A DNA stretch of 64,000 nt from positions 26,206-90,205 of IMG/VR virus record IMGVR_UViG_3300045141_000107; one strand, 5' to 3'. This document shows, piece by piece, positions 45,962-63,093 of the stretch. The first letter of the stretch is position 1; each line of letters starts with the position of its first letter. The notes under the pieces are model-generated. The model was not told the DNA's origin. It saw nothing but the letters and a program-made list of their open reading frames with translations, and ran no database searches. The stretch comes from a virus. Both the position numbers and the translations under genes were made by a program.

Positions 45962-47743
45962 CTAAAATCCCTTCAGGCTAGCAAAAGTAGATCGCAAGTC
46001 CATACCTGCTGGAACTAGGTCCTGCAACCGTAGTCCTCCACCACCTGGCCCCTCGAGAGCACCACCCACATGCAAGTCTTCTATTCTACCGCGCCCGTAT
46101 ATGTTAGCGGCTGCTTTCGCATAATTATCCGCGTGGCGATAGTGGTCATCACCCACTTTCAGCCATACAGCTACGGTGTTACCCTTGGCGTCTTCTTGCA
46201 GGTCGCGCTTCATGTTGGTCATCTGCTTGATGAACTCTTCCTGTTCCTCGTTCAGGTTCTTCAGGGGGTCACCAACCAGAAACGCCATACCATCGATCCA
46301 GTCCTGAGCACTATCGTCCAGAGTTTCAGTTCTGTCCAAGTGCATAGTGCTGGTCTCGGTTTCCTGTTCCTTCTTGCGCTTTTCCTGCTCACGCCGTTTG
46401 TTCTCGGTTATATACTTCTTCTCCTCACGCTGGTCCTTGTAGTATGCCATATACATACGCCCACGGAAGCGTTGTACTAGATCTCTCGCGTTGTGCTTGT
46501 TGGGGAGGGCGTCAATAATTCCAGACCGCACACGGTACAGACTAATGATGCTATCAATTTTGTAGAAGTCGTTGGTAACACCGAAAGCAACCACGGCCAT
46601 TCTGCCGGTGGGAAGGACTCTTCGTACAACCCAGTGGAGTAAATCACCTTGATCGACTCCAATAACGTTGAAACCTGTATCTGGGATGGATGCCTGCATT
46701 GTCCTGAGGATAGTATCACGGGTGATAAGGCCCTCGCCGGTAAGGTACGGCAGACCAAGGTCAAAGTTGTGGAAACGCTTGCGAGCGAAGTTGGTATTCT
46801 TACGCTCTACCTTGCGCCACTCTGCCCAAACGCTCGTAGCTGTAACGTATGTGAAGGTCAGTGGATTGATCCAGTACCCACGCATGCCGTCAGCAGGGGC
46901 TACCAAACGACCCTGGTCATCGTATACAGCATCCGTCGCCTTCTGTGGGTGTTTGGCTACCCATGCACCGTTACGACGGTTCAGCTTTACGCCGCATCTT
47001 CGGCACCCGAAGTATGGAGTCCCACCCTTCCGTTTGAGGAGGTTGTGCTCGAAGGTAACGTCCTGCCACTTGCCGCAGCTTGTGCATCTAACAAGCCAGT
47101 GTCTTTGATCAGTATCTTTATAGAGCGCATTGATGCCAAAGTCGGGGATGCTCGGCGTACTGAAGCGCCAGAACCACTTGAGCTTGCTAGCACCCACCCT
47201 TTTCTCGAAAGTGTCCATGACGTCTTGAGCAGAAAAATCATATTCGTCGTTGACGATGATGTCTGCAGGGACAGAAATAGCCTGGCTGTGTTTCTGAGCA
47301 CCGCGGAAGTATAGCGTACTCGCGCCCATACGTTTGAGCGTGGCATTGTCAACATTGCCCATCCTGGCACTGAGGTAGTTAGAAGCCTTGATAACTGGCG
47401 CAAATCTAGCTTGTGAGAATTCAAAAACGTCCTTTGCCGTCGGCATGGTGTAGATTGCCGTAATATTGTGGGTGTCGCAATAATACAGCAGCTTGCATAT
47501 CTGGCATGTCGTCATACCGATCTGTGAGCCCTTCTGGGCCACAATAAGCGGGTGCCAGTCCCTATATACATCCACCATAGGCAGGTGGTCCTTGAACTCC
47601 AGGGGCTCCAATTTTTCGGTGCGCAAATTTGCCCTTGCAGACATCCAAGTAATAGGGTCTATATCACCCAATATTTCGCTAGCTACAGTAGGGTTGTCCT
47701 TTATCAGTTCTGCAAAGCCAGCGGTTACGTCACTTATCGACAT
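45962..47743 (-). CDS. terminase large subunit (GpA-like)
   Basis: QKGSQIGMT Walker A, DEYD, STP, CxxC zinc finger, GVDQG, DHYRHADNY. Confidence 0.9.
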   Translation of the reverse strand: MSISDVTAGFAELIKDNPTVASEILGDIDPITWMSARANLRTEKLEPLEFKDHLPMVDVYRDWHPLIVAQKGSQIGMTTCQICKLLYYCDTHNITAIYTMPTAKDVFEFSQARFAPVIKASNYLSARMGNVDNATLKRMGASTLYFRGAQKHSQAISVPADIIVNDEYDFSAQDVMDTFEKRVGASKLKWFWRFSTPSIPDFGINALYKDTDQRHWLVRCTSCGKWQDVTFEHNLLKRKGGTPYFGCRRCGVKLNRRNGAWVAKHPQKATDAVYDDQGRLVAPADGMRGYWINPLTFTYVTATSVWAEWRKVERKNTNFARKRFHNFDLGLPYLTGEGLITRDTILRTMQASIPDTGFNVIGVDQGDLLHWVVRRVLPTGRMAVVAFGVTNDFYKIDSIISLYRVRSGIIDALPNKHNARDLVQRFRGRMYMAYYKDQREEKKYITENKRREQEKRKKEQETETSTMHLDRTETLDDSAQDWIDGMAFLVGDPLKNLNEEQEEFIKQMTNMKRDLQEDAKGNTVAVWLKVGDDHYRHADNYAKAAANIYGRGRIEDLHVGGALEGPGGGGLRLQDLVPAGMDLRSTFASLKGF

Positions 47744-48397: not shown

Positions 48398-49028
48398 CAG
48401 CAAACGCCTCCTGTCGTGCAACCCTGATAGCGCGGCTCGCCTGGCCGCTTACGTTGGACAATTGCCCGATCAGGATCCGCTGTTGTTCTGGTGGTAGCTG
48501 GTCAAAGCTTACCTTCAGCTCGTTCTTCCTCTGGTCGTAGTAGGTAATAGCGCCACCCTGAGGTGTTGTTATAGACTGCCCGTTGCTCTTCTTCAGGATG
48601 CGCTCGCGCTCCTCGCGCGTGAACTTCATGAGGTTGATTGCCTCACCCACGTTCTTGGGAAACATACCATAGCGCTTGGGGTAACGCAAGACCTCACGCA
48701 TGATATGCTGGATCTGAGTCAGTACCTTGGCGGTCTCAATGTCGTCCATTGCCAACTGCTGCAAGACGGGGTCTTCGCTGGTGCGCAGCATCCGCTGTAG
48801 CTCGTTGTGGTAGACGGCAGCTTTCGCTTCCCAGTCAAACTTGTCCCGCCATCTGGTAATGGTACCCACGGAAACTTCAGTACGTAGTTTCTCTTTGCAG
48901 ATCTTCGCAGTCTGGCTCGCGTTCTGCTCGTTGTGCAGCCAGATCCTAAACACCTTCTCGCGGAAAGCAGGCAAGTAGTGCGTCTGCTGTGCCCGCATTC
49001 TGCTTTCTCTCATTACTTTACGGCCCAT
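48384..49028 (-). CDS. putative terminase small subunit
   Basis: N-terminal HTH (VSVGTITRWRDKFDW), helical, upstream of the large subunit. Confidence 0.65.
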   Translation of the reverse strand: MGRKVMRESRMRAQQTHYLPAFREKVFRIWLHNEQNASQTAKICKEKLRTEVSVGTITRWRDKFDWEAKAAVYHNELQRMLRTSEDPVLQQLAMDDIETAKVLTQIQHIMREVLRYPKRYGMFPKNVGEAINLMKFTREERERILKKSNGQSITTPQGGAITYYDQRKNELKVSFDQLPPEQQRILIGQLSNVSGQASRAIRVARQEAFADEEE

Positions 49029-49488
49029 ATGCCCTTATGATATACTTCAGCGCGTAATTCATGCAACATAGGTACGCAAGGGGTGGCAGTCTACAAACTG
49101 AAGCAAGGTACCATCGAAACCAACTATCACTACGAAGTCGTGGGCGCGTCTCGCGCGTATATACACCTGTTAGGTAGGGACATTACAGATGTCATCCACA
49201 GACCCGAAGGACGCGGAATCCGGAAACAGTCGCTACAAAGAGCTCCGCAGTCTGCCAAATCACAACAAGAAGCCAGATTGTCCTCTTTGCAAGCACAACA
49301 AAGAGGCTTTCGGCAGTACGGTAAAAACGTGCTACGAAAGCGATTCACCTAACGCAGGAGAAGATACCAAGACCTTTATTGAGGGATCAAAGCAAACTTA
49401 CTAGCGTGCGCATCGTCATCTTTCTGATGATTTTGCTATTCCTTATGCTCCTGTACGTCCTGATAATAGAGTTCTTCAAGGGGATTTC

Positions 49489-49749
49489 ATGACCAGAGTA
49501 GATCGTGAATACGGTTTCATCGAGGATGCTGAAGGTGATCCTACAGTCTATACCGTCACAGTAGAGGGCAGTCACACAGCAGACCAGGACCAGCTAGATC
49601 GCATACTTCAGTTCGTCCTCGTAGAACTTGGTGTCGATACATCCTGGCAGATCGCCCCTCCAGATCCTACTCCTGAGGAATTGCCTCCTCCGCAAGTTCC
49701 TCCTCTCCCAGATGTACCACCGGAGAACCAACCCACTGGTCAAATCTAG
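49489..49749 (+). CDS. hypothetical protein, acidic with Pro-rich C-terminus
   Basis: AAGGGG RBS; 86 aa. Confidence 0.5.
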   Translation: MTRVDREYGFIEDAEGDPTVYTVTVEGSHTADQDQLDRILQFVLVELGVDTSWQIAPPDPTPEELPPPQVPPLPDVPPENQPTGQI

Positions 49750-49906
49750 GAGAATCAAGATTCTCCGTAAGCCAGCTAAGGAAAAATGCTGGTACACCAA
49801 CAAAATAATCTTCGCATCTTATAGGGATGCAGAGAAGTCATCACATGGCATGCGAGTCTATATCTGTCGCTGGTGTATGAAGTATCACCTTACCAGGAAT
49901 ATGTAG
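49736..49906 (+). CDS. small zinc-finger phage protein (start uncertain)
   Basis: C...K..F....A...RVYICRWC..YHLT pattern at the 3' end of ORF 49628..49906. Confidence 0.45.
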   Translation: MVKSRRIKILRKPAKEKCWYTNKIIFASYRDAEKSSHGMRVYICRWCMKYHLTRNM

Positions 49907-50249
49907 GGTCTCCCTATATGTATAGTGTATACGCTCGTAGCGCATCGCGCGTACCTTAGTAGGGTTGCAGTAGGGGTGTAGGGGGCACCCGGAAACTTTG
50001 TGTTTGTCTCAGCGGGTACCCTAAGCGGACATTAGAAGCGTCGTTGTCTGCGTCGTTTGAAACGGATCTTGTTCGAGATCGTAAGTACCTTCCCGTGTGC
50101 CGTTGGTAGGGTGGCATGGCGCGGGCCGGTACCTTGCGCTTGCTAGCTGCCTCTGCGCCAGCGCTGGCAGGCGCGGCAGGCAGGCGCTTTGCCGTTGTCC
50201 GCGGGTAGAACGCTTGTTCTGGCGCTGCCCTGGTGCGCAAGTAGGCAAC

Positions 50250-50278
50250 AAAAAAGCGCTGCCGTGTTGGCAGCGCTT
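50250..50278 (-). terminator. intrinsic terminator
   Basis: minus strand AAGCGCTGCC-AACAC-GGCAGCGCTT running into a T-tract. Confidence 0.7.
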
Positions 50279-50299
50279 GCGCTTGCGGACTGACGTAGG

Positions 50300-50593
50300 T
50301 CAGTCTGGCGAGTCGGAGTAATAGCGCCAACGGCGCAGGCGTTGTACGGCAGCGATAACCTCTGCCTGCCATTCTGTGAGCGCTGGCGCTAGCGAGTAAC
50401 GCGGTGCGGTGTAGTAGCTGGCACCGTTGGAATGGCAATCGACAACGGTGTAGCGCGGTGCCGTTGGCACTGCCTCACTGGCAGTGACAATGGTGTAGAT
50501 CCGCGCCTGCGCAGGCAGTGAGGCAGCGCAGGCTAGCCTAGGGTAGCGGTGCCATACGGCAGGCGCGGCAGTGAGGTTAGTTGTGGCATGCAT
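50300..50593 (-). CDS. hypothetical protein in the anomalous island
   Basis: 97-aa ORF between a hairpin (50611-50635) and a terminator. Confidence 0.45.
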   Translation of the reverse strand: MHATTNLTAAPAVWHRYPRLACAASLPAQARIYTIVTASEAVPTAPRYTVVDCHSNGASYYTAPRYSLAPALTEWQAEVIAAVQRLRRWRYYSDSPD

Positions 50594-50644
50594 GGCGGTA
50601 AGCCTAGCGGTGCGGCAGGCAGTGAGCCTGCCGCAGGCAGCTAG

Positions 50645-51820
50645 TTAGCTGGCGCTCCAATCCGTAGCGCCACACGCGCTACATTCCGTGTTGGTGGTGA
50701 AATTTCGAGCGGTGCAATGCTGGCAGCGCGCCGTTGAGGCAATGCCACCGTTAGGCAGCGCTTGTGCCGCTGGCGGAGTCGGAACACGCGGTGTAGCTGG
50801 CGCGGCAGGCGTGGCAACCTCTGCCGCTTGCGCAGGCGCAGGCGTTGAGGTTGAGCCGTTCCATGCTGCCAGCGCTGCCGCATCCGACGAAACGAAACGG
50901 ACGCCAGCGGTGCCGCGTGCTGCTAGTCGGAATCGACCGTCGGAGTAAAGCGCTACGCCTGCGCCTGAAAGGAATTTGAGCGCCAGCGTATCAGCGCCTT
51001 TAGGCGCGCCAGCCGCATGCGGTCCGAATCCAAACAACCATGCATCCGTGGCAGCGCTTTCGCCTCCGTCTTTGAGTCCGATTGAAAGCAAGTAACGGCG
51101 CATGACAGGCACAAGCGCCAGATAGTCGGATTTGTTGGCTACGCCTGCGCCAGCGAATGAAACGATGGAAACGTAGCGCGTGCCTGCCACGGCAGAGACT
51201 CCGCGCAAATCGCCAGACCATTCCTTGCGGAATTCGGAGTAGGCAGCGGCAGCGCGAGCGTAGACAGTCGGATCACTGTCTGCCTGCGCCAGCGCTTGCG
51301 CATTGCGCTCCGCCGTGCGCGGACCAATTGGTTTGCGGCCGACATACGGCGCAGGCGCGGCAACCTCTGCCGCTGGCGCTTGCGGTGGCGCAGGCGCGTA
51401 TTTCGTTTCGATGGCTGCGAGCATGGCTGCGAGCAATTCCGCAGGCAGGCTAGCTGCGGCAGCGGTGGCAGCGGCAATCTCTGCCGTTTTCTGCGCTTGC
51501 AACGCAACCTCTGCCTCTGCCATCGCCAGCGCTCCGCGCGCCGTTTCGAGCGCTGCCTCAAGCGCAGCACGCGCGGGATTGTCTGCCGTTAGGACTGTCA
51601 ACGCGGTTTCGATGTTGGCAACCGTTACTGCCTCTGGCAGCATGGCAGCGGTGGCAACCTCAACGGTGCCGTTTGCGGTGGGTTCGATGTTGGTAGGAAT
51701 GTCCGTACCCTCAACTGTTGGAACGCTGGCAGGCGTGTTGTCTGCCGCTGGCGTGTTGTCGATTGTCGCTGCCTCTGCCTGCGCAGCTAGCTTTTCAATT
51801 AGGCGCTTTGTCGCTGCCAT
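50645..51820 (-). CDS. Ala-rich protein with C-terminal zinc ribbon
   Basis: GGGAG RBS before ATG 51820; coiled coil, central globular region, CQHC-x10-CSAC. Confidence 0.7.
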   Translation of the reverse strand: MAATKRLIEKLAAQAEAATIDNTPAADNTPASVPTVEGTDIPTNIEPTANGTVEVATAAMLPEAVTVANIETALTVLTADNPARAALEAALETARGALAMAEAEVALQAQKTAEIAAATAAAASLPAELLAAMLAAIETKYAPAPPQAPAAEVAAPAPYVGRKPIGPRTAERNAQALAQADSDPTVYARAAAAYSEFRKEWSGDLRGVSAVAGTRYVSIVSFAGAGVANKSDYLALVPVMRRYLLSIGLKDGGESAATDAWLFGFGPHAAGAPKGADTLALKFLSGAGVALYSDGRFRLAARGTAGVRFVSSDAAALAAWNGSTSTPAPAQAAEVATPAAPATPRVPTPPAAQALPNGGIASTARCQHCTARNFTTNTECSACGATDWSAS

Positions 51821-52021
51821 GTCGTGTCTCCCGCGCTGCCGTGTTGATTTGGTTGGTTCGGAGCGCTGCGGCAATTATGTATCTACGCATAGAATCGCGC
51901 CGTTACACTCAACCGCTTGTACTTGCATACATCGTTCTGGCGCTTGCGCTTGCCAGGGCCAACGCTGGCAAGTTTTGTAACGGCGGCAGTTTGGCGCGTG
52001 GTACAAAAAGTCGGTACAAAT

Positions 52022-52208
52022 CTCAACCGCGCTCAACCGCTTTTTGCTGCCGCTCAACCGCTTTTCGGCGGGTTACGGTAAAGCGGTTTTTCGTTGGATT
52101 TTTCGTAGGCAGTCTGCCGCAGGCATTACTTGCGCTTGCACGTTTGCATTTGATAACGGCGCGCCATTTGATAACACGGCGTCACCCGTACGCGTACGTA
52201 CGCGTACG
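52022..52208. repeat. CTCAACCGC x3, CATTTGATAAC x2 and a 22-bp perfect palindrome
   Basis: copies at 52022, 52032, 52053 (also 51908); 52147, 52165; CGTACGCGTACGTACGCGTACG at 52187-52208. Confidence 0.8.
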
Positions 52209-52220
52209 CATTTACTTGCG

Positions 52221-52485
52221 TTAGCACGTGCTAATGTGCAAGCGTTAGCCGATGCTAACGGCCTTAGCCCCAGCTAAGCGCAAGCGTTAGTTAGCACATA
52301 CTAACAGCCGCGGACAGCGCAAACTGGCAACGTTAGCATATGCGAACGCCAGGGCAGCGCAAGTGCAAACTAACCTCCTTAGTATGTGCTAACTTGCAAG
52401 CGCAGCATGTGCAAACTGCAAGCGTTAGTTCGTACATGCTAACGTCCTAAGCACGTGCGTGCTTCGGGACGCAGTGCGTGCTAAG
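52221..52485. repeat. array of 14-bp palindromes TTAGC-N4-GCTAA
   Basis: copies at 52221, 52245, 52264, 52291, 52333, 52379, 52429, plus degenerate copies near 52402, 52448, 52471. Confidence 0.85.
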
Positions 52486-52502
52486 GCACGCCGCGGCGTC
52501 AA

Positions 52503-52730
52503 TAGAAACTACTGTCTCTCCCCAGATTCGTGCCGAATTTTGGGAATTCACCGTCTCTCGTGGGGTCGGGCCCAGATCGTGATCTGCTGATCGGGATCGT
52601 GTACTGAAGGAAGTGACCGACCTACAGATCGGGATCAGGATCCTTTAGAAACTACCGTCTTTCCCCAGATCATACCAGATTTTACATGAATACACGGCAA
52701 TAAAACGGGAATCTACCGTCTTTCTGGGGG
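52503..52730. repeat. duplicated 25-bp units enclosing a GATC cluster
   Basis: TAGAAACTACYGTCTYTCCCCAGAT at 52503 and 52646; GATC at 52575, 52581, 52589, 52595, 52627, 52633, 52639, 52668. Confidence 0.8.
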
Positions 52731-53108
52731 ATAACTCAAGATTACAGACGTCAATCATGCCTAGATGGAGAGATCTTCACATGAACAACTACACATGCAC
52801 GAATTTTACTACGAAATTGATACAGAACAAACATTATTCATTACATACTACCTGCTGTTGCACTGAGGGACTAGGTATACCGAGCTCTTTTTAGCGATTA
52901 CTTATAGATCAGATAGTCGCGTCGCACAACAGTGTTTGCAAATATCTAGACCGGGGATATCCAGACGGGGTATCTAGCATGGGGGTATCCCAAACCATAC
53001 TACCTGTGTTTCAGGGCTTGATCAGGGAAAGAATGCAACTAAGGCGCAAGGTACCGGAATATATCATGGTCGTACAAAGAGGCACCAAATATCCAGCAGT
53101 GGGGATAT

Positions 53109-53498
53109 CTAGACGGGGGTATGTGGACAATAGCCTCTCATACCATACGACCAGTTACAATTCATACACAATGTACGGAATGTAGTGGGGTAGTTCTCGC
53201 GTATGATGCGTAGGTATGCCTGAAAACTGTTCTCTGGGTATGGCTTGCCGCCGATATGATCTATGTTTAGGAATTCCTCGTGCTGCTCCCCACAACACAC
53301 GCATTCCCACCCATAGTGGTTGAACACTTTGATCCGGATCTCTTTCCTTAGCTTAGCAAGGCGCAAGTTGTTCTGTTCCCTGCGGCAATAGATACAGACT
53401 GTCCCACCCTGAAATGTACCACCCGCGATCGTACCAGTGTTGCCGCACCGACACACACGTCTCTTGTTCCTACGGCTTATGACTATACGTTTCAGCAC
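53109..53498 (-). CDS. HNH endonuclease
   Basis: HYG.ECVCCGE....LNIDHI...LCMNCN. Confidence 0.75.
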   Translation of the reverse strand: MLKRIVISRRNKRRVCRCGNTGTIAGGTFQGGTVCIYCRREQNNLRLAKLRKEIRIKVFNHYGWECVCCGEQHEEFLNIDHIGGKPYPENSFQAYLRIIRENYPTTFRTLCMNCNWSYGMRGYCPHTPV

Positions 53499-53625
53499 TA
53501 CCCATATTATACCATACGTAGATCACGATCTATATTTCAGCACAATAAAGGCCACCTTTCTAGGGGTGGCCCATCTAGACGGAGGGGGTATTGGGGCGAT
53601 TACTTGGCTGCAATACGGGAAGCAA

Positions 53626-53904
53626 TCATGGGTGCTGAGGTCGTGTCAGATTTTCAGCTTTCACAATACGATTGGCTTCCACAAGCCCGCAACTGTTCGT
53701 GCGGCAGGTAACCCAGACACGTGCCACGTAAGAGTTCTGGAGCTGAATAAGTGCCACGCCGTTCTGCATTACCACCCAATGGAGGCCATCCTGCATGAGA
53801 ATGTATCCCTTGTATGCAATCGTACCTGCACTTTCGTTGTAGAACCCGTTCTGTACCGCCAGCTTGTACACCTGGAGGCGTGTGCTTTCGTTGCGCATTG
53901 CTTC
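53626..53904 (-). CDS. hypothetical protein
   Basis: within ORF 53626..53943; AAGGAAG precedes MRNESTR; start approximate. Confidence 0.4.
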   Translation of the reverse strand, partial: EAMRNESTRLQVYKLAVQNGFYNESAGTIAYKGYILMQDGLHWVVMQNGVALIQLQNSYVARVWVTCRTNSCGLVEANRIVKAENLTRPQHP

Positions 53905-54719
53905 CTTAGCTGAAATAATCACTGTGGTGCCCTCGCCGAACATTATACCACCTGCCTATTTCTCAATAATGTAGAGCACACAAATGATCATGAGAGCACA
54001 CCACACCGGAAATGGTAGGGAAGCAATCAAGTTCACCCACCAATCGAAAGCGTATGTGTAGTGATGCAATTGTTCTAGCAGTGCCTGTTCCATGGTCTAT
54101 CGGTCCACGTATTTCTGTCCTGGCTGCACCCAGGCTGCATTCCCAACCATGATGGCTGGACCACGGCTGTCCAAGTACACCACCAGATAGTTGTACTTCG
54201 TACCCTTGATTAGCTGTGTGAGGGCGCTCTTACGCGCCGCCACACTCTTGTAAATGCGCCACTCCATTACGCTTCAGCCTCCACTTCCTGGTGCTGTGCT
54301 TCAATCCAGCTTTCAATGCCTTCCTGGCAGGTGAAACGGCGTGCGTGCTGATGCACGTAGCCGTTCTTATCCATTAGCCGCCAGAAGTCGTCACCACAGT
54401 GCACGTATCTCACTCCATGCATTGTGTATTGCTGAAAGTGTGCCATCTTAGCCAATGAACCCCGAACCAACTGCCCAGACGCCAGCCACAACCACCAGAC
54501 TGTAAACCGTTCCAGCCATGAACGCTACCAGATAGCCCATTGTTCTCACTCCTTAGCGGGCAGGCTTCAGCAGCCTGTGGACCCGCAGGTACTCAGCCGC
54601 AACCTTGCGGCTAATCTTGTAGGGGCGGTACGGGAGTACGCCCCTATCCATGTACGGCTGGCGTCCGTTTACCAGCAGATAGGCATCAGTGCCCCAGAGC
54701 TTGTACGTGGCCTGATGCA

Positions 54720-55082
54720 TTACCACTTCTCCCGTATTGGGGTCCAGGGGCCTTTCGGCATCTGTGTACCCTTGTAATCGCGTGTGGGACGTGGCATTGG
54801 TCGCTGGCCCTTGCCGCTTGGACGGTTGGCACGGTCGGCCGCAACCTGTTCTGGTGTTGGGTTGTACGGTTTGCTCAGTTCGGCCTGCCGTTTCTTGCTC
54901 ATGGCCCGTAGCATGGCAAGGTGCGCGTCGTGTTCCTCGGCCTCAACGTAGCCCATGCTTTCCATCCGGTCCACCCAAGCCATGAACTTGGCCGCGTCAG
55001 TGGTAATGAACTCGGCCATTGGTGCAGAAAACGGGCTGTCACCCTTTGCCATACGGAACATGACGCCGTGGTACTGTGGCAT
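54720..55082 (-). CDS. hypothetical protein
   Basis: MPQYHGVMF... after an AAAGGTGG RBS, downstream of a promoter. Confidence 0.55.
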   Translation of the reverse strand: MPQYHGVMFRMAKGDSPFSAPMAEFITTDAAKFMAWVDRMESMGYVEAEEHDAHLAMLRAMSKKRQAELSKPYNPTPEQVAADRANRPSGKGQRPMPRPTRDYKGTQMPKGPWTPIREKW

Positions 55083-55165
55083 TAGACACCACCTTTCATA
55101 TGCGCAAGCCTGGTTGCCCCTTGGGGCTGGACGCTGCCATTGCCTACGCCGCTGCGCATGGCTAA

Positions 55166-55195
55166 AGTATGCCCCATAGAGTATCTGGGCCACAA
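55166..55195 (-). promoter_or_regulatory. repeated early promoter
   Basis: TTGTGG-cccAGAtacTCTatgggg-CATACT. Confidence 0.6.
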
Positions 55196-55493
55196 GCTAA
55201 TGCTGAACGTGGCGTGAGTGTGTAGAGAGGGGGGCCTTTCGACCCCCAGACCTTGCACTACTTCGCTTCCAGCGCCTGCTCGATTGCATTTAGCGCATTG
55301 AAAGCAAACAGGGTCCCAACCAGTTTCTGGTTCTTTAGGAACCATGCCCGTGCCTGATAAAGCTCAGGCTTTGTCCAACTCTTTAGCTGCCGTACCTGAG
55401 CATCCATAACCCACTCCATAACACACTCCATGGCGCGCACGCGGTTTAGCCCCTTGGGGCCGTGGAAAGCACCTACGCCGCTGCGCACGCCAC

Positions 55494-55523
55494 ATTATGC
55501 CATATAGAGGCTCTGTGGTGCAG
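55494..55523 (-). promoter_or_regulatory. repeated early promoter
   Basis: CTGCAC-cacAGAgccTCTatatgg-CATAAT. Confidence 0.6.
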
Positions 55524-55554
55524 TCCCTGCTGAACGTGTGGTGAACGTGGCGTC

Positions 55555-55875
55555 CTATTCGGTCTCCCTTTCCAGGATGAGGAGTGCAATATCCGCTCCC
55601 GTTTGTACGCTCGTGCGTCCGCACACCATCAGTACCTCTGTGAGACCGAGTGCCTGCAGGAACGCCTTGGCAATCCCAAGGTCCTGGGTGCGGAACGTGG
55701 TTTCGTTCTCGGCAGTGATCTCGACGACGACTGGTTCCGGTTCGGGCTGTTTCATGTCTACCAAAGTCGTGCCAGATTTACGGCATGACGGGTGTGAAAA
55801 CATCATAGTCTCTCCCATACCATGATAATAACTGTCCCGGCCAATGCGGCCAGGACTAAGACTGTACCAATCCAT
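55555..55875 (-). CDS. hypothetical protein
   Basis: 106-aa ORF. Confidence 0.45.
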   Translation of the reverse strand: MDWYSLSPGRIGRDSYYHGMGETMMFSHPSCRKSGTTLVDMKQPEPEPVVVEITAENETTFRTQDLGIAKAFLQALGLTEVLMVCGRTSVQTGADIALLILERETE

Positions 55876-56355
55876 TCCATTACCTTAGCAGGCTTGCCAT
55901 GTCCAGCCGTTGGCATTCACTCACGGGCAGACGTGCTTCAAGCATCTCCTTGTACACTAGCTTTTCTGCTAGTGTGTGATTGGCATGTGCGTAGTGGTGG
56001 TCTGGGAGACAGATAACCATCTCACCAACACTGATGCGGTACTCTCGCCTGTCACGCAACACCATGCAGATGCGACAATCATAGCCTGGTTCGAAGGTTG
56101 AAGGGAGGGGCAACTGCCCCTCGAACTCCAATGGTACGCGGTACATTTCAGTCCTCGCTGTATGCGTCATGCTCCATGGTGAAGCCGTTGTCCCGCATAC
56201 GATAAGGGCAACCCACGCAGGAGTCTTCGTCATCCACCGTGTTGCACGGAGGGCAACCATTGTCCCAGTCGCTGTTGATTGGGAGACCAGCCGCACTGGC
56301 CTCCAAGTACAGCGCCGCTAGACGCTGGTTCAGTTCTTGCAACTTTGTCACTATC

Positions 56356-56682
56356 TCACTCCTTGCCATCGCAGATGGCACAATACCCTGGCCCGTCACA
56401 GGCGGGCTGCATAAGCATGCTGAACGCCTGGATGAAGTACAGCTTGTCCAGGAACAGCAGGTAGGCAACCCACAGTTCCAGCAACGCGGCCAGCTCAAGG
56501 TCTGGCCCAACATCACTGTACTCAGCAACAATCTCACGCCCATTGCGGCGTGAGAGCTTAGCCATTCGGCGCTTCTCCCAACGATAGGGAGTTGTGGCTG
56601 GCCTCCAGCCACGCCCACCATCGAAGTGGGTCAATTCTTTGTGGCGCAGATTGGGGCTAAACTCTACAACCAAACGGGACAT
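56356..56682 (-). CDS. hypothetical protein
   Basis: GAGGG RBS downstream of a promoter; C-terminal Cys cluster. Confidence 0.5.
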   Translation of the reverse strand: MSRLVVEFSPNLRHKELTHFDGGRGWRPATTPYRWEKRRMAKLSRRNGREIVAEYSDVGPDLELAALLELWVAYLLFLDKLYFIQAFSMLMQPACDGPGYCAICDGKE

Positions 56683-56731
56683 AACTCTTACCCTCTTGCT
56701 TCATATAGGCAATGCCTGGTTGCCTAGCCGT

Positions 56732-56761
56732 AGTATAGGGCATGGACGCTCTGGTTAGGTT
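56732..56761 (-). promoter_or_regulatory. repeated early promoter (weak -35)
   Basis: accAGAgcgTCcatgccc-TATACT followed by a TAGGCAA/TTGCCTA hairpin. Confidence 0.5.
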
Positions 56762-57228
56762 CAGTTGACCCAACCATCTCCCGCTAAGATACGGCTGATC
56801 TGCGAATGTGCTACTTCGAATCTCCGTGCTAGATGCCTTTGACTACATCCAAGGACACAATACAGAAAGATTATTGCCTGAACCTGTCTGTATGTTAGTC
56901 TAGCTGAACCATGCCTTTCTCCTACAGCCTGTCGCCCCTTAGCCACCATGTCATCCATGTTCACCTGTTGTGTACCTAGGAACAGATGGCTTATCTCACC
57001 ACACACTCTGTTATCACATGTGTGTAGAACTTGTAATCCTTCAGGCGCTGATCCATTATGGTGTGTCCACACTAGAATATGAACCCGCCATAATCGTTGG
57101 TGGTATCTAACTAGACCGTACCCATTATCCGACAGTGGCCGTCCGCTCCAGTTTCTGCATCCAGTGACAGGGTCTAGTATTAGCCTAGTCTCTATATCAG
57201 TCCATGTTGCGCGACGGCCTTTAGTCAT
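56761..57228 (-). CDS. HNH homing endonuclease with C-terminal HTH
   Basis: GCRNWSG, GYG, VH, VLHTCDNRVC...HLFLGT...NMDDMVAKGR. Confidence 0.9.
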   Translation of the reverse strand: MTKGRRATWTDIETRLILDPVTGCRNWSGRPLSDNGYGLVRYHQRLWRVHILVWTHHNGSAPEGLQVLHTCDNRVCGEISHLFLGTQQVNMDDMVAKGRQAVGERHGSARLTYRQVQAIIFLYCVLGCSQRHLARRFEVAHSQISRILAGDGWVN

Positions 57229-57674
57229 TAGCTGCTATGCCCGAATATTGTCTTTTCGGCGCAGTTGCCGCATCTAAATTCACCCTGCCAGTAGACCCAC
57301 CCATTCGGGTAGTTCCCACCGTACCATGCGTAGCAGTCGTCTTCATTGCCACCATTGTCCCAGGGGAGAAGCAAATGGTTCACTCCGTCGCATCCCTCCC
57401 TGGTACCTGGAATCTCACCAGTAACCGCGTTGCACCACAGAACCGGAAACCAGTTCTTGGCACTTTCCACAGAATGCTCTGAGACAGTGTGGTCTTCCAA
57501 CTGACACATATCACAGATAGCATGTTGGCACCAGATTTTGTCAGGTGCCGTCCAGTGGTAGATAGCAGCTTCCTCACCCATGATTACTTCTGCACCACAG
57601 GGGGCATCAGCCACCCAATAGTGCATCTTCATCACAGGAGAGTACCTGCGTGCTTTGACAAACGCTGGCAGCAT
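57228..57674 (-). CDS. Cys-rich hypothetical protein
   Basis: 148-aa coupled ORF. Confidence 0.5.
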   Translation of the reverse strand: MLPAFVKARRYSPVMKMHYWVADAPCGAEVIMGEEAAIYHWTAPDKIWCQHAICDMCQLEDHTVSEHSVESAKNWFPVLWCNAVTGEIPGTREGCDGVNHLLLPWDNGGNEDDCYAWYGGNYPNGWVYWQGEFRCGNCAEKTIFGHSS

Positions 57675-57925
57675 CAGTTCAAGCCGTCCTGCATGTAGAG
57701 GCCGATAGCCACTGGCACACAGTGCTCACCGTGGTCAGCGCAATCAACACGAACTGCCCACGCTGGTGTAATCAGGCAGTTCTTGTCACACACTTCACAC
57801 ACGTAGTGGTGGTCTTCATCCACAAACTCAGGCGGGCTGGCGAAGTGGCCTCCGCAACAATCGGAGGCCCATGTGATGCCCACAATTGGGAAGGCATCCT
57901 TCAGTTCTTGGCTGACAGTTTGCAT
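57674..57925 (-). CDS. Cys-rich hypothetical protein
   Basis: MQTVSQELK...SDCCG...CEVCDKNC; TAATG coupling. Confidence 0.5.
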   Translation of the reverse strand: MQTVSQELKDAFPIVGITWASDCCGGHFASPPEFVDEDHHYVCEVCDKNCLITPAWAVRVDCADHGEHCVPVAIGLYMQDGLN

Positions 57926-58135
57926 TACGGGGTGTCTTTTGCCTCTTGCTCTGCTTCCAGCAGCGCATCCGTCACACGCGGGGGCTTGCCTGAAGCCTTC
58001 CAAATCTCCCGACAACGTGCCCATGCGGCCAGCTTCTCGGGGCTAACCTCTGTGTTCACAGGCTGCTCGACAGGTTTCTGTGCCATGATTATCTCCATAG
58101 CTTTTCAAGTACCGTGGGCCTGTTGGCCCACCCAC

Positions 58136-58165
58136 ATTATGCCACATGGAGCGTCTGTGGCACAT
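58136..58165 (-). promoter_or_regulatory. repeated early promoter
   Basis: ATGTGC-cacAGAcgcTCcatgtgg-CATAAT followed by a GTGGGCC-AACA-GGCCCAC hairpin. Confidence 0.55.
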
Positions 58166-58253
58166 CTCCAGCCGTTCTTGACTGCACTTACCCCTAGCTG
58201 CCCATTCCCATGGAAAGAGATGGTCTGCGACTCGTGCTAGAACTAATCATGGG

Positions 58254-58667
58254 TTAGATTATCGTGCCAGATTTCCTCAAGTATCTCGCCAAGCCAAGCA
58301 ATGTCTCACGACGGTCCCGAACATTTCCCAACGCCAGATTACAAGACGGGCAGAGCAGACCACGTACACATTTTCCACACGTGTTATTCCCTGGACAACA
58401 ACGGCGGTCATGGTCCACACATATCTTAGGCATTGGTCGCTCGCACCCACCACATAGAAAGTTTTGCTTCACAAGCAAGTCAACGAACTTACGTGGTGGG
58501 ATATTGAACTTTCTCTCAAGGCGACTTTTCAGGGCAAACGCACGACCACGGACAGTACGCATTCTAGCCTGCATTCCAATTCTCTTGCAGGTGACACAGT
58601 AATCTCCAGGGAAACCATCCTTCCTTGGGCTACGTTGATGTGTAGTATCGGAGCAACGCTTGGGCAT
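58254..58667 (-). CDS. endonuclease VII-family protein
   Basis: Q..LC..C, VDHD..CC...CGKCVRGLLC..CN..LG. Confidence 0.85.
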   Translation of the reverse strand: MPKRCSDTTHQRSPRKDGFPGDYCVTCKRIGMQARMRTVRGRAFALKSRLERKFNIPPRKFVDLLVKQNFLCGGCERPMPKICVDHDRRCCPGNNTCGKCVRGLLCPSCNLALGNVRDRRETLLGLARYLRKSGTII

Positions 58668-58682
58668 TGCCCCAATTATACC

Positions 58683-58937
58683 CTATGACGCCGCTTGCTT
58701 CTCCATGGCACAGTATTCACACACGTGCGGTGCGTACTCGATGTAGTCCACCATCCACTGCCAGACGTGCCAGAGCCACGGCCTGAAACCACCTAGCTCC
58801 TCGAACACGTACGTCTCACGCTTGTTGCGCCACGTCATTCTCAGCAGGCAGCGCACATGGAACCTGCGGGCCAAGATAGCCCGCACCACCATACTTAGAA
58901 TGACACCGTTGGGTTTCGACCAGTTGGCGTAGGTCAC
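58683..58937 (-). CDS. hypothetical protein
   Basis: 84-aa coupled ORF. Confidence 0.45.
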   Translation of the reverse strand: MTYANWSKPNGVILSMVVRAILARRFHVRCLLRMTWRNKRETYVFEELGGFRPWLWHVWQWMVDYIEYAPHVCEYCAMEKQAAS

Positions 58938-59287
58938 TACTTGACCTTGCGCACTGAGAATTGGCCCTCAGGGTTTGCTTCCATGGAGATGGCCCGCTGC
59001 TTACGCATCTGGCTCTCGGTGCCGCGCTGGAGTACCTGGCCTGTCTCCTTGTTGACCAGCTCATGGGTGCCCTCAGGCACACCCACCACAAAGACCTCCT
59101 CGGGCACCGTATCCACTTCACCAGTGGCAGTCTCGTCCCAACCCTGTGGGACGGTTTCTTCCTCCACGTGGTTGTGAGTGTTGTGCATGTACTGCTGCAT
59201 GCTCATGCGGCGGCCAGCACGGATGTCGATGCGCTTCTGCAAGCGCTTGCGAGCCTGCTTGACGCGGCCCATAGTTCTACGGTTCAT
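58937..59287 (-). CDS. hypothetical protein, basic N-terminus
   Basis: AGGAG RBS downstream of a promoter. Confidence 0.55.
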   Translation of the reverse strand: MNRRTMGRVKQARKRLQKRIDIRAGRRMSMQQYMHNTHNHVEEETVPQGWDETATGEVDTVPEEVFVVGVPEGTHELVNKETGQVLQRGTESQMRKQRAISMEANPEGQFSVRKVK

Positions 59288-59343
59288 ACCACTCCTGTGT
59301 GCACATTCTAGTCATATAGGCTTGCCTGGTGTGCACTGGCCTA

Positions 59344-59373
59344 ATTATGGGGCCTAGATTATCTTTTGCGCAA
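59344..59373 (-). promoter_or_regulatory. repeated early promoter
   Basis: TTGCGC-aaaAGAtaaTCTaggccc-CATAAT. Confidence 0.65.
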
Positions 59374-59562
59374 CGCCACGGACCGCATGGCCTGAGGTAA
59401 GTTCTCCACAAACCATTCTTTGACTTCCTCTGCGGTCAACCCCTGCCGATACAGTCTGCCGACCAGGCGTACCAGATCATCGCGTGACTTGGCAGCCATT
59501 TCGGCCTGTGAGAGTGGGTTCACCACTCTGTTAGTCTTACGCACTGGCACGACTTTGCTCAC
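59359..59562 (-). CDS. hypothetical protein
   Basis: 67 aa; stop codon lies inside the downstream promoter. Confidence 0.5.
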   Translation of the reverse strand: MSKVVPVRKTNRVVNPLSQAEMAAKSRDDLVRLVGRLYRQGLTAEEVKEWFVENLPQAMRSVALRKR

Positions 59563-59942
59563 GCCTGGACACCAACTGGATAAGCAGCCAGCTCACGCTT
59601 GGCCTGTGCATCCCACTTAGCAGGGGCATCAGCCTCACACCTGAATGCATAGTCAAGCGCGAGAGGGTAAGCCCGATTGTAGTGGCAGACTACCTCGTAG
59701 TAGCCATAGTCACCATCTCGGTTGAACTTTGCAGCCAGCCGTGCTCCCTCGGGTTCGTTCCCAAGGGTACGGCGTATGAGTTGCATGAACGCATGGCACT
59801 CTGCTCTCATGCGCTCGTAGTTCGAGCCAGAAACGTTGGCCTGCTCACACTTCTCGTCGCAGGGCGCAGGCCCAATTTCAATGTAGTCCAACATCAAATC
59901 ACTCCAGGGTTTAGACACTGCCAGCCTTTTGTGCAGAGCCAC
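59559..59942 (-). CDS. hypothetical protein (start probably internal)
   Basis: IGPAPCDE.C.Q...ECHAF..LIRR..G.EPEGA.L...GYYEVVC. Confidence 0.55.
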   Translation of the reverse strand: MALHKRLAVSKPWSDLMLDYIEIGPAPCDEKCEQANVSGSNYERMRAECHAFMQLIRRTLGNEPEGARLAAKFNRDGDYGYYEVVCHYNRAYPLALDYAFRCEADAPAKWDAQAKRELAAYPVGVQA

Positions 59943-60259
59943 ACTGTCTCGTTGCTCAGCACCACGATGTCCCCCATTGAGAAGCTGCGCTCCATTGGCA
60001 CAGCTTTCTCGCTGAAGTAGTTATTACCCTGTGCATCCCACGCGCGTTCGCACAAGGTAATCTGGCTCTGGTCATTCTCAACGGAGATGTAGTACATCTT
60101 GTACACACCCTGCGTCAAGTACCAGAGGGCACGTGCTGGGAACTTGGGATCGAAGTACACTTCCGTAACTGGATGCTGTCCCCAACGCTCTGTGCATGCC
60201 TCCCAATCCAGCACACCAATTTGCACTACAACCGTGTCCACACTTGTGTCAGTAGCCAT
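59894..60259 (-). CDS. hypothetical protein (YodL-like RSFSMGDIVV)
   Basis: MATDTSV start after AAGGAG; RSxSxGD motif. Confidence 0.5.
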   Translation of the reverse strand: MATDTSVDTVVVQIGVLDWEACTERWGQHPVTEVYFDPKFPARALWYLTQGVYKMYYISVENDQSQITLCERAWDAQGNNYFSEKAVPMERSFSMGDIVVLSNETVWLCTKGWQCLNPGVI

Positions 60260-60299
60260 CTCGCCACACTCCTTGCGGTACCTATGGGCACCCACCCAC

Positions 60300-60329
60300 A
60301 TAATACCACACAGACCGTCTACCAGGGTT
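60300..60329 (-). promoter_or_regulatory. repeated early promoter (weak -35)
   Basis: ggtAGAcggTCTgtgtgg-TATTAT followed by a GGTGCC-CATA-GGTACC hairpin. Confidence 0.5.
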
Positions 60330-60531
60330 CACTGACTTTGACAGCGATATGCCTTGGACCACTGCCGTCAGTGGACCTGATCCTGATAGTAAAGTTGAGC
60401 CTGTCGATGCGTGTGATATCCATGCGGTCCATATCCACACCAACACCCTGAAGTGAATCAACCATGTACATCCTTGTCATGGCGACCAGCGCGTCTGTGA
60501 CTTTGTACTTGGTATCCTGGGGTAGGGGCAT
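60319..60531 (-). CDS. hypothetical protein
   Basis: 70-aa coupled ORF. Confidence 0.5.
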   Translation of the reverse strand: MPLPQDTKYKVTDALVAMTRMYMVDSLQGVGVDMDRMDITRIDRLNFTIRIRSTDGSGPRHIAVKVSEPW

Positions 60532-60749
60532 TATGATGCTAGCACCTCCTGCTTCGCGATGATGTTGTTGTCGGCATCTGTCTCACAAATCTCCCAGATG
60601 CTACCCATGTCGTCGGTGACAATGCCTACCGTGTTTTCTTCGGTAGAAGCAGAATCATAATAGAACGGGTCCATGCTGGCCTGCACATGGACTACGTGTT
60701 TCTCAGCGCTAAACTTACTCAGCGCCTTCACAAAGTCTTTTGTCAACAT
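60531..60749 (-). CDS. hypothetical protein
   Basis: 72-aa coupled ORF. Confidence 0.5.
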   Translation of the reverse strand: MLTKDFVKALSKFSAEKHVVHVQASMDPFYYDSASTEENTVGIVTDDMGSIWEICETDADNNIIAKQEVLAS

Positions 60750-62257
60750 TAGTGGATGTGTAGCTCCTGTATCGCACGAGTAATGGCAACGTACTTGAGA
60801 TTGTACTCTTGCTGGATTTCCTCATCCGTGGTTGCCATTGGATGCGGCATAAGTCCAGGCTCGATAATGTGCACGATGTGGCTCTCAAGGCCCTTGGCTC
60901 GGTGCACGCTAGACAGTAGCACAAACTTGGTCTTGTCCGTGCTGCCATCGATATCGGCAAAGATTAGCTGGATACGGTCCAACACCTGCTGAACAGTTTC
61001 CATTCCCTGGCATAGTGCGTCGATGCAATCACACTTGTCTGCCAGTACCTGAAGCTTGGCTTCGTTGCTGATAGCCCTTGTAGGGTCTGCACCCAGGCGC
61101 AGTGTCTCTTTGTCACGCCACTCGTTCAGCTTGGTAGTCAGTTCGACCACCGTGTCATGCGGCGCGGCAAGACGCTTGATTAGCTTGGCTAAGTCAGCAC
61201 CTACTTCTCTGCCCTGGATTTTGACTGGCACATTGCCAGCAATCAGCCCGTAGGCTGCACTGACCAGCGGTGCATTCGTGCGACACAGCACCATGTGGCT
61301 GCGCCGGAACTCCAGCGTGCTGTTGTGCTTGACGATGCCGTACTCCATAGGAGGTTCTTCCTTGGAGCCACTGGTTTTCCATACCAAGTATGGTTCCCAT
61401 AGTTCCGGCACGCACTCGAACGTAGGCACAATCTCTTGTGCTAGTTCCACCACAGATGGTGGGCATCTGCGCGTCACTGTTAGAGGCAGTACCTTTACCT
61501 CTCTGTCAGTACCTTCCAGCATGATGCGCATGTTGTCCATGCTATGCGCATCGGCACCCCTGAACCTGTAGATAGCCTGGCGCTTGTCGCCTACCAGGAC
61601 AATACGAGAGCCAGACATCATAACCAGCTCTTGCTGCACACGGTTCAAGTCCTGGCTCTCATCCACAAACAGCACATCGAACTTCTCAACTGCCAGCCCC
61701 AGGACTACGGGCAGGTACAGCATGTCGTCGAAGTCGATGGTGGTCAGGTCTTTCTTGCTTTTCTCAAGGCAGCCCCGCGTTAGACCGCAGATTACCTTGG
61801 TGCTGTCTTCCAGTTCTATGCCGTACTCGGCAGCCAGCCCAACCAGATTCTCAGTAGTTGGTTCCGTCAGCGTGTTCTTGCACAACGACACCAACCTGAG
61901 CGTTGCACTTCTCACATGCGGAGAAGCCAGCGGCGGTATCATTTTGGCAACCTTGTCTCGGTCCAACATGTCACGCAATGGTTTCTTTGCGTGGTCCGAG
62001 ACAGCCTTGCCACCGAGACTATGCAACGTCGCAGCCTTGACGCCCCTTGGCACCCTGTTCTGCAACTCCATTGCAATGGTCCGGTTGAAACAGACGAAGG
62101 CCACTTTCTTGCCACGTGGTAGCACCTTCAGTGCTTCCAAGATGGTAGTGGTCTTGCCCGTACCAGCAAGCGCTTCGATAATCAGGTGGCAGTTCTCTTC
62201 CTTGCACACCTTCATAATCTGTGCTTGCTGCGGACTAAGTGTTAGTGCCACGTTCAC
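60749..62257 (-). CDS. UvrD/Rep-like superfamily I helicase
   Basis: ALAGTGKTT, VDESQD, VGDKRQAIYRFRGA, SVHRAKGLE, YVAITRA. Confidence 0.92.
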   Translation of the reverse strand: MNVALTLSPQQAQIMKVCKEENCHLIIEALAGTGKTTTILEALKVLPRGKKVAFVCFNRTIAMELQNRVPRGVKAATLHSLGGKAVSDHAKKPLRDMLDRDKVAKMIPPLASPHVRSATLRLVSLCKNTLTEPTTENLVGLAAEYGIELEDSTKVICGLTRGCLEKSKKDLTTIDFDDMLYLPVVLGLAVEKFDVLFVDESQDLNRVQQELVMMSGSRIVLVGDKRQAIYRFRGADAHSMDNMRIMLEGTDREVKVLPLTVTRRCPPSVVELAQEIVPTFECVPELWEPYLVWKTSGSKEEPPMEYGIVKHNSTLEFRRSHMVLCRTNAPLVSAAYGLIAGNVPVKIQGREVGADLAKLIKRLAAPHDTVVELTTKLNEWRDKETLRLGADPTRAISNEAKLQVLADKCDCIDALCQGMETVQQVLDRIQLIFADIDGSTDKTKFVLLSSVHRAKGLESHIVHIIEPGLMPHPMATTDEEIQQEYNLKYVAITRAIQELHIH

Positions 62258-62298
62258 CCCTGTGCTTTCTATAGCGTAGCCCTGGTTGGGCTAGCCAC

Positions 62299-62328
62299 AG
62301 TATGCGGCACAGACTATCTTTTGTGCAA
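62299..62328 (-). promoter_or_regulatory. repeated early promoter
   Basis: TTGCAC-aaaAGAtagTCTgtgccg-CATACT. Confidence 0.65.
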
Positions 62329-62652
62329 TGCCGCCAGACGGGTACCTTTGACAACAAGGTATCTGAAGCCTGTGTTGTCTCTGGCGATGCGCATGGCCTC
62401 GCCGTTCAAAGCATCAAAGATAATCTCAAGCTGGATGTTCATCTCTTCCCAGACTTGGTCCCAGCTTTGCTGGCTGGTTTGTTCGTCAAACCATTTCTCT
62501 GGCAGATAAGCCTTGAAGTAGGCTATCCCCATATCACGCGAGCTATCTACGGTACCGGGACCTGTCGCCAACTCTGCTGCAACCACGTCACGCATGAAGC
62601 CTATGGCTAGCATGCGTGCCTGGTCAGCGTCTACCCTACGTTTCTTTGTCAC
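62314..62652 (-). CDS. hypothetical protein
   Basis: 112 aa; stop codon lies inside the downstream promoter. Confidence 0.5.
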   Translation of the reverse strand: MTKKRRVDADQARMLAIGFMRDVVAAELATGPGTVDSSRDMGIAYFKAYLPEKWFDEQTSQQSWDQVWEEMNIQLEIIFDALNGEAMRIARDNTGFRYLVVKGTRLAALHKR

Positions 62653-62829
62653 CTCAGTCGTCGAGTTCCTCCAGCAGTACGGCTTTGGTCGCCTCCAGCA
62701 GTTTCTCCCAAGTTTGGGTTGGGATAGACACCAGTTTCTTGCTGGTATCGGTCTGGTATGGCTCGGCCTGTCGTTCTGCCAGCCTACGCGCCGCTAGCAA
62801 GTTGATAAGCGTCTGGTCTTTCAATGTTT

Positions 62830-63093
62830 TCACTCCCTGTATCCTGCCTGTTTCGGTACCTTGAGTCTGTCGGTGTGGAACCCAACATAACTCTTCACGT
62901 GGGGTTCGATGTGAAAGTGCCACGCGGGGTGCTCTTTCGCCAAACCCTCAATCATCTCGTCCACAAACTTGCTCTCTGCCTCGTAGTACATGCCGTAGAC
63001 TTCGACGCCCTCAAGTGGCACCTGACTATGCGGCAGTTCGTTCAGGCCAGCACCAGATGTAGCCTCTGGTCGGTACACTAGTACAACAATCAT
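62830..63093 (-). CDS. hypothetical protein
   Basis: GAGAGGG RBS downstream of a promoter. Confidence 0.55.
   Translation of the reverse strand: MIVVLVYRPEATSGAGLNELPHSQVPLEGVEVYGMYYEAESKFVDEMIEGLAKEHPAWHFHIEPHVKSYVGFHTDRLKVPKQAGYRE

Follow-up and report, generated by a model that had tools for sequence, protein, structure and literature searches.

A conserved island of extreme DNA composition beside the terminase gene of an uncultured phage: a candidate direct terminal repeat

The stretch of DNA analysed here (the window, 64,000 nt) comprises bases 26206–90205 of a 90,205-bp IMG/VR virus record that is rated 98% complete and classed as ‘linear’. It contains, 2.3 kb upstream of the large terminase gene, an island of extreme composition with a two-gene unit, which we take as about 50087–52500 (counts are quoted for 50100–52500). 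The island is biased independently of codon use and is conserved in relatives, contigs over it are deeper than their flanks in two of three usable runs, and two contigs end in it at the same base; from these observations we infer a direct terminal repeat (DTR) that was collapsed to one copy in the assembly, together with its exact ends and all of its functions.

The island and its genes

The structural genes up to the large terminase (45962–47743) are read from the minus strand, those for portal, protease and major head protein being located behind the terminase. The stretch with the island is present in four soil or rhizosphere runs (X1–X4). A two-gene unit with a terminator, and repeat and palindrome arrays at the inner boundary, had been anticipated in the original prediction, and both are present (Table 1), the arrays spanning 51908–52490; one block of the palindrome array is 81% identical to the relative L007.

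Table 1. Features of the island and its edges, in window coordinates
Feature	Position	Strand	Remarks
Box 2, AAGGTAC on minus strand	50085..50091	(-)	Conserved in 17/17 sequences compared; 41 nt outward of box 1
Box 1, AGCGCAAGGTACCG	50127..50140	(-)	At the compositional edge; best-conserved element at this locus
Intrinsic terminator (two-gene unit)	50244..50278	(-)	Hairpin 50278->50254, 10-pair stem (7 G-C), loop 5, then T run TTTTTGTT
Gene 2, 97 aa	50300..50593	(-)	ORF 50593->50300; no known family
Gene 1, 391 aa	50645..51820	(-)	ORF 51820->50645
Leader and candidate promoter of the two-gene unit	51821..51960	(-)	GGGAG 8 nt before ATG, CATAAT ~50 nt upstream; read by eye
Four copies of CTCAACCGC	51908..52061	(+)	Starts 51908, 52022, 52032, 52053
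22-bp perfect palindrome	52187..52208		Self-match on opposite strand; listed hairpin
TTAGY-N4-RCTAA palindrome array, several after GCAAGCG, then long hairpin	52219..52490		Repeat family D4, 5 copies
Right edge	52500..52690		Composition changes at about 52500; end of 2x depth estimated at 52500–52690
Four GAAACTACCGTCTTTC-type repeats (family D9), just outside the island	52505..52724	(+)	Interleaved with GATC; kept in five-genome alignment A3

From the N terminus, the gene 1 protein consists of an Ala-rich helical part, a central domain (residues 160–325), a Pro/Ala linker and, at the C terminus, a CxxC...CxxC zinc ribbon. Its 48 homologues are all metagenomic, and their alignment (A1) has 25 invariant columns, four Cys among them. 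In the structural model a long helical hairpin is followed by the central domain (pLDDT 95) and the four-Cys ribbon. The ribbon resembles Zn_ribbon_RanBP in Pfam at a level below the cut-off (E 5.5e-4), and a profile search of the PDB gave only weak zinc-ribbon rows (E 0.06 or worse, the eL40/NZF type being best at 0.06). The best structural match of the central domain among 48,161 representative chains has a Z of 4.0, and several winged-helix DNA-binding proteins occur among its matches at Z 2–3, a lead only. With the whole model, Foldseek found nothing at E up to 0.001 in PDB and BFVD, and VIA-align found only generic long helices (Z up to 7.6).

Gene 2 gave no Pfam match above the cut-off and no PHROG or NCBIfam match. 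For the island proteins together there was no PHROG at E up to 1, nothing in Pfam beyond the weak zinc ribbon, no NCBIfam match and no tblastn match among 50,697 phage records; a pattern-limited scan of one genome each of 185,579 species found no relative of gene 1, and positions 49000–54000 had no Rfam match and no megablast match in phage records. When related loci were sought, the single protein gave nothing and the alignment recovered, among viral contigs, only those already known. Since a consensus scan found no sigma-70-type promoter for the two-gene unit, the promoter listed in Table 1 is a putative one.

Composition of the island

The dinucleotide relative-abundance distance between the island and the rest of the genome is 245, against 60±20 (maximum 133) for 166 other stretches of equal size, and by this signature the island is the most deviant part of the 90-kb genome. 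Its GC content is 0.61–0.63 as opposed to about 0.52. The core of the bias is at the dinucleotide level, with GA/TC at 0.57 (0.96 in the rest of the genome), CC/GG at 0.64 (0.93), GC at 1.69 (1.05), CG at 1.22 (0.80) and AA/TT at 1.32 (0.92). The 933 non-coding nucleotides are biased alike (GA/TC 0.36, GC 1.82), in agreement with the earlier claim that coding and non-coding parts share the bias.

The original prediction had described this island, from a manual scan, as written in a narrow vocabulary and purged of certain motifs, and its counts were all reproduced: GAAG is absent, CTTC and CCGG occur once each (at 52462 and 50126), GATC twice (50498 and 51271) and GGCC four times, while GCGC occurs 76 times, GGCA 47, TGCC 35, AGCG 44 and CGCT 41 times. 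The statement that the depleted motifs are frequent elsewhere is true of GAAG/CTTC (10.6 per kb) but not of CCGG, which is rare everywhere (1.5 per kb), or of GGCC (2.7 per kb), and GATC is itself scarce in 53801–64000. In a comparison with 1000 shuffles of the island that keep its dinucleotides, GAAG/CTTC (1 observed, 12.8±3.5 expected), CCGG (1, 9.8±3.0) and GGCC (4, 13.5±3.2) are depleted, whereas GATC (2, 2.2±1.4) and GCGC (76, 71.7±6.2) stand at expectation and are therefore explained by the dinucleotide make-up.

Ala-rich codon use, which had been named as a possible cause of the depletion, is ruled out. When synonymous codons were permuted in the 391-aa gene, so that both the protein and its codon usage were kept, GAAG/CTTC was expected 10.0±2.2 times and observed not at all, CCGG was expected 5.4 times (observed 0) and GGCC 8.9 times (1), and conversely GCGC was expected 20.7 times (42) and GGCA/TGCC 18.1 times (41); recoding the protein with the codon usage of the genome gave expectations close to these. 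The purge thus extends beyond composition and codon use for GAAG/CTTC, CCGG and GGCC, though not for GATC. The z-score profile of 4-mers in gene 1 has a spread of 1.65, compared with 0.88–1.29 in the terminase, portal, head and helicase genes, and across five genomes the spread is 1.2–1.9 in gene 1 and 0.9–1.3 in the four control genes. This profile correlates with those of the orthologues in four relatives (r 0.30–0.67; r 0.23–0.67 over all pairs of the five genomes). Considering that the bias is independent of codons and that the profiles are correlated in relatives, the DNA words themselves must be under constraint.

What is reduced in the island is its vocabulary: there are 944 distinct 6-mers, compared with 1302±39 in other stretches. 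Palindromic sites are enriched, with 54 hexamers of 21 kinds (elsewhere 23.5±5.1 of 17.4±3.5 kinds; 2.3-fold enrichment) and 193 tetramers (122±12), so that a general avoidance of restriction sites is not supported. These results bear on the original prediction, in which the island was likened to the leading segment of phage T5: the repeat would be first-step DNA purged of host-nuclease sites, and entry would pause at the palindrome array until the island proteins act. The three motifs depleted beyond codon use are in keeping with this, as is the small vocabulary, which offers fewer possible targets; the abundance and variety of palindromic hexamers, the compositional origin of the GATC scarcity and the genome-wide rarity of CCGG are not. 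The island also pairs strongly with itself as single-stranded DNA (DNA parameters), folding at −35 to −62 kcal/mol per 200 nt in comparison with −9 to −35 kcal/mol in the flanks; relative to its own dinucleotide shuffles the mean z is −2.04 in 23 windows of the island and −0.27 in 39 windows outside.

Conservation in relatives

Ten IMG/VR loci were fetched via the terminase, of which five reach the position of the island (L005 and L006 being identical there) and the other five are too short. As had been proposed, the island was sought in these related genomes, and all five that reach it have, at the same place, an island of 2.2–2.7 kb in which GC and GCGC are raised and GATC and GAAG/CTTC are few. 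Its signature (GA/TC 0.52–0.73, CC/GG 0.62–0.75, GC 1.47–1.90) contrasts with values of about 1 in the flanks, and the compositional edges are sharp on both sides in five genomes. The preferred longer words differ from one genome's island to another's. Both genes are found by tblastn in the four distinct relatives, gene 1 at 38–47% identity and gene 2, downstream of it, at 40–52%, whereas the terminases of these relatives are 86–91% identical. The island therefore evolves fast yet keeps its composition, an argument against the passive retention of foreign DNA; a chimeric or foreign origin is ruled out by its occurrence at the same place in the five relatives and its coverage by contigs of four runs.

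Box 1 is invariant in the five-genome alignment A2 and exact in all five IMG/VR relatives. With at most one mismatch it is found in 13 of 17 metagenome contigs (among which L038 is the same contig as L007), that is, in 13 of the 14 that reach its position; three of the four misses stop short. A scan of viral contigs for the box returned 22 stretches, with the island context only in the four known relatives, and the rest look like chance occurrences in GC-rich DNA.

The edges of the island show some further variation. Contig L027 shares the island (window 50077–52541) at 93% identity, but past the boxes on one side and the first flank repeat on the other its sequence is unrelated; islands can thus change backgrounds, and their edges may be the sites at which genomes exchange them. 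A hypervariable spacer (49907–50067) adjoins the left boxes on the outside: the alignment of the close relatives L028 and L030 stops at 49907/49953 and resumes at 50050/50067, with other sequence between, and run X1 has variant contigs at 49907–50067. A further GTACCTT is located at 49951 (box 2 reads so at 50085 on the plus strand). An inverted copy of the box, GGCGCAAGGTACCG, is located at 53043–53056 (+), 545 nt outside the island, and is also present in the close relatives L028 and L030, while no exact match to its 12-nt core was found in the IMG/VR relatives L005–L009. As the right end of a repeat this inverted box can be rejected, given that depth arithmetic excludes a repeat extending there.

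Evidence for a probable collapsed terminal repeat

Depth was taken from assembled Logan contigs, as one figure per contig, which is not a copy number. In two of three usable runs the word depth of island contigs is about twice that of the flanks. In run X1 the island contig (50057–52027) has a depth of 21.0, the adjoining contig (47273–49893) 10.7 and five other flank contigs 5.5–11.0; in run X2 the island contigs have depths of 9.61, 7.82 and 7.45 and four flank contigs 4.2–5.1 (about 1.8-fold). Judging from the mean depths of contigs that straddle the right edge (14.2 for 52062–53540 in X1, 7.45 for 51874–52748 in X2), the raised stretch would end at 52500–52690. Many contigs with gene 1 (L027, L031–L033, L035, L036, L039–L041) are 1.5–3.2 kb long and hold little more than the island. 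Contigs of this size would be expected if the depth of the island were higher in thin samples, a weak pointer as short contigs are common anyway.

Such an excess might also be seen if the island were an internal early-gene and regulatory element with no terminal role, and its depth were raised by GC-dependent library bias or by a co-occurring strain that shares it. The lack of doubling in run X3 and the intermediate figures of X4 (given below) are compatible with this, eight contigs of X1 that are only 90–95% alike attest to a second strain in that run, and L027 combines the island with other flanks. However, the second-strain pieces in X1 have depths of 2.5–4.75, too little to account for an increase of 10, and a GC-rich control piece (54716–55173, GC about 0.6) is not raised (11.0 in X1, 4.22 in X2). 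Considering also the sharp edges on both sides of the island in five genomes and the contig ends that coincide within a conserved box, we regard an internal island as unlikely.

These ends belong to contigs L029 and L036, which represent different lineages (92% and 53% protein identity to the window) and stop at the identical base, after the GGT of box 2. The base is window position 50087, where the alignment of L029 starts, and we place the putative left physical end of the repeat between 50086 and 50087, in box 2. Among the 13 contigs with box 1, two end at 50087, one 24 nt and another 107 nt beyond it, and nine run on; homology between strains breaks at 50050–50087. Moreover, the two ends of the related genome G001 (90,615 bp) overlap by 127 bp, the sign of a circle made by the assembler, and both ends of the contig of the phage studied here map side by side in it; a circular assembly with a single copy of the island is the expected outcome of a collapsed repeat. 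Finally, the large terminase belongs to phrog_675 (E 1e-111), the same family as the terminase of phage EAb13, which has an annotated long DTR.

Taken together, contig depth, coincident contig ends and terminase family suggest that the island is a collapsed exact direct terminal repeat, with a probability that we put at about 0.6. In this sense the terminal position proposed for it originally probably holds, with the reservation that its right end is unmarked by contig ends. Several findings weigh against a repeat. In run X3 the island has a depth of 5.2–5.4 and the flanks 3.8–5.1 (about 1.2-fold, without doubling), and in run X4, with its diverged strains, island pieces are listed at 6–7 and others at 22–26, with flanks at 15–17; all of these figures derive from assembled contigs only, and the source sample may itself be run X1. 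With about 26 contig ends in all, the coincidence of two might be due to chance, at odds that we estimate at roughly 1 in 10, and the right edge showed no coincident contig end. Identity of the terminase to the nearest ones of cultured phages is no more than 24–27%.

GATC around the island

If the island is a terminal repeat, it would, by its position, be the first DNA to enter the cell, and the distribution of GATC beside it is relevant here. The abrupt return of GATC described originally does occur, the first being at 52575, and eight GATC lie within 94 nt (52575–52668, as 4+3+1), interleaved with the four GAAACTACCGTCTTTC-type repeats; the arrangement is kept in relatives and is located at the estimated right edge of raised depth. 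This cluster may be a packaging or replication site. Farther on, GATC is nearly absent from 53801–64000. Over the 18.2-kb zone beside the island (window 53801–64000 and genome 1–8000), which would come after the left copy of the repeat, there are 12 GATC where 54.9 are expected from the zone's own trinucleotides, whereas the rest of the genome has 281 for 334 expected, i.e. 4.1 per kb as against 0.66 per kb in the zone; the relatives agree with this, GATC being absent from the corresponding flanks of L005 and L007. Such a purge is the pattern expected of early exposure to a GATC-directed activity and so supports entry from the island side, which would also agree with the polar entry implied by a T5-like mechanism.

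The cluster raises the further question of headful packaging as in phage P1, from a pac site at the GATC, with the island as the terminal redundancy of the first headful only. The location of the 4+3 cluster (52575–52639) right at the depth edge and the circularity of the assembly would be accounted for. However, the end cut of a headful is imprecise, yet a single base within a conserved box is the end point of two contigs; the compositional edges are sharp on both sides; and a phage whose terminase is of the same family has a long DTR with exact ends. We therefore consider headful packaging very improbable.

Discussion

We propose that the island is an exact direct terminal repeat of about 2.4–2.6 kb (from about 50087 to 52500–52690), which would be represented by one copy in the circularly closed assembly and would stand at both genome ends in the virion. 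The repeat would carry a self-contained unit reading toward the left end, composed of two fast-evolving genes and a terminator, one product of the unit being a zinc-ribbon protein with a possibly DNA-binding core. Its inner edge would be formed by a 0.7-kb untranslated block of palindromic, putative protein-binding sites, and its terminase-side end would lie within the pair of conserved AAGGTAC boxes, taken as a candidate terminase recognition or cut site.

The composition of the island (GC and CG steps raised, GA/TC and CC/GG lowered, a small vocabulary, many short palindromes and strong self-pairing) is probably kept by selection on the DNA, and is probably specific to terminal DNA. We suggest that it could serve the DNA end in first expression by the host machinery, in end protection and in the pairing of repeats into concatemers, rather than in general restriction avoidance. 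Dense palindromes and self-pairing would fit such a role through the folding of resected tails, repeat pairing and dense protein binding.

For an uncultured phage it is hardly ever known where the genome ends, and here a compositional island, a pair of boxes and the behaviour of contigs point to them from sequence. If it is true that the composition is repeat-specific, it would provide a sequence-only marker for terminal repeats, and one would then have to ask which selective force acts on DNA that is first to enter a cell. The island proteins form families with no cellular or cultured-phage relative in the databases searched and are candidates for the earliest host-takeover or end-handling functions.

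Comparison with known terminal repeats and pac sites

[quoted passage not shown] Like the T5 LTR, the island has its genes (the earliest genes, in T5) transcribed toward the end and a long untranslated repeat and palindrome block at its inner edge; if the island is a repeat, the T5-type layout is present in its two-gene unit and its 0.7-kb array block. The size differs, about 2.5 kb with two genes here and 10.2 kb with 17 annotated genes in T5.

The T5 LTR is likewise the most deviant part of its own genome (distance 185 versus 45±17, maximum 88), and its composition is shifted in the same way as that of the island, the bias being far stronger in the island. In the LTR relative to the rest of T5, CG is 1.31 (0.76), GC 1.52 (1.11) and GA/TC 0.80 (0.99); per kb, GCGC is raised sixfold (5.38 versus 0.88), AGCG/CGCT is 11.7 (3.7) and GAAG/CTTC is lowered twofold (4.79 versus 10.68). 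Our literature searches found no published description of this shift. The kinds of palindromic hexamers are reduced in the T5 LTR (31 versus 42.1±3.4, minimum 33) but not in the island.

The analogy with T5 therefore holds for layout (in T5, minus-strand pre-early genes and an iss at the inner edge) and for the direction of the compositional shift, and breaks down elsewhere. Passages of PMC10644984 state that sites in the first-step region are the only ones through which Type I and Type II systems act on T5-like phages; local selection is thus a sound idea in principle, and the pattern here is unlike site avoidance. Pfam and PHROG searches of both island proteins found no homologue of A1, A2 or dmp, so that no family is shared with A1/A2. 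A search for the DnaA box TTWTNCACA with at most one mismatch gave a single, mismatched site (52408) in 51821–52760 and no array, and the window as a whole has 61 such matches where 89±9 are expected. On balance we find a T5-like first-step segment, purged of nuclease sites and halted at the palindrome array, rather doubtful.

Acinetobacter phage EAb13 (OQ717042.1; abstract of PMC10508131) is another close parallel. Its record annotates a DTR of 2,177 bp with two substantial genes, and the gene for its terminase is found 4 kb inward of the right copy. It shares with the phage studied here the phrog_675 terminase, a similar genome size (82 versus 90 kb), repeat length and number of substantial repeat genes, and a minus-strand block of structural genes and terminase a few kb inward of that copy; it is unlike it in that the terminases are only 24% identical. 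Unlike the island, the EAb13 repeat has a lower GC content than its genome (0.355 versus 0.403), and it is mildly deviant (distance 100 versus 63±21, z 1.7).

The Herelleviridae of the SPO1-like and K-like kinds are distant terminase relatives of this phage, and their terminal repeats hold early host-takeover genes; unlike the island, these repeats are 8–13 kb long, with many small genes and a weak deviation. No window of the phage K genome deviates as much as its terminal repeat (79 versus 38±13, maximum 74), which is shifted in the same direction, and the first 13,185 nt of the SPO1 record, which we take to be its repeat, are weakly shifted that way (41 versus 34±12, z 0.6). The shift vectors of the terminal repeats correlate at r 0.49–0.92; no such correlation is seen for the last 13,185 nt of SPO1. 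The weak deviation of EAb13 and SPO1 shows that a shared shift is no rule, and this too weighs against the reading of the island's composition as a mark of terminal DNA.

It is nevertheless conceivable, if improbable, that the terminal repeats of this clade, T5, K and EAb13 share a DNA-level syndrome, extreme in the island, and represent a purpose-built leading end. The syndrome would comprise raised CpG and GpC steps, lowered GA/TC, a small vocabulary, many palindromes and strong self-pairing, in a sequence that, whatever it encodes, is under selection for survival and function as a naked DNA end. It would present few targets to sequence-specific defences, its hairpin tails could resist exonucleases and favour the pairing of repeats, and it may offer dense sites for the zinc-ribbon protein.

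The pac site of P1 has a GATC-rich 4+3 cluster like that at this locus, where the cluster lies outside the island, beside its edge; P1 packages by headful, and the evidence here points to exact ends. Overall, what the original prediction observed is confirmed and its interpretation is partly supported. In comparison with these systems, the island would be a terminal repeat that carries the earliest genes, with a T5-like layout, an extreme composition and proteins of new families.

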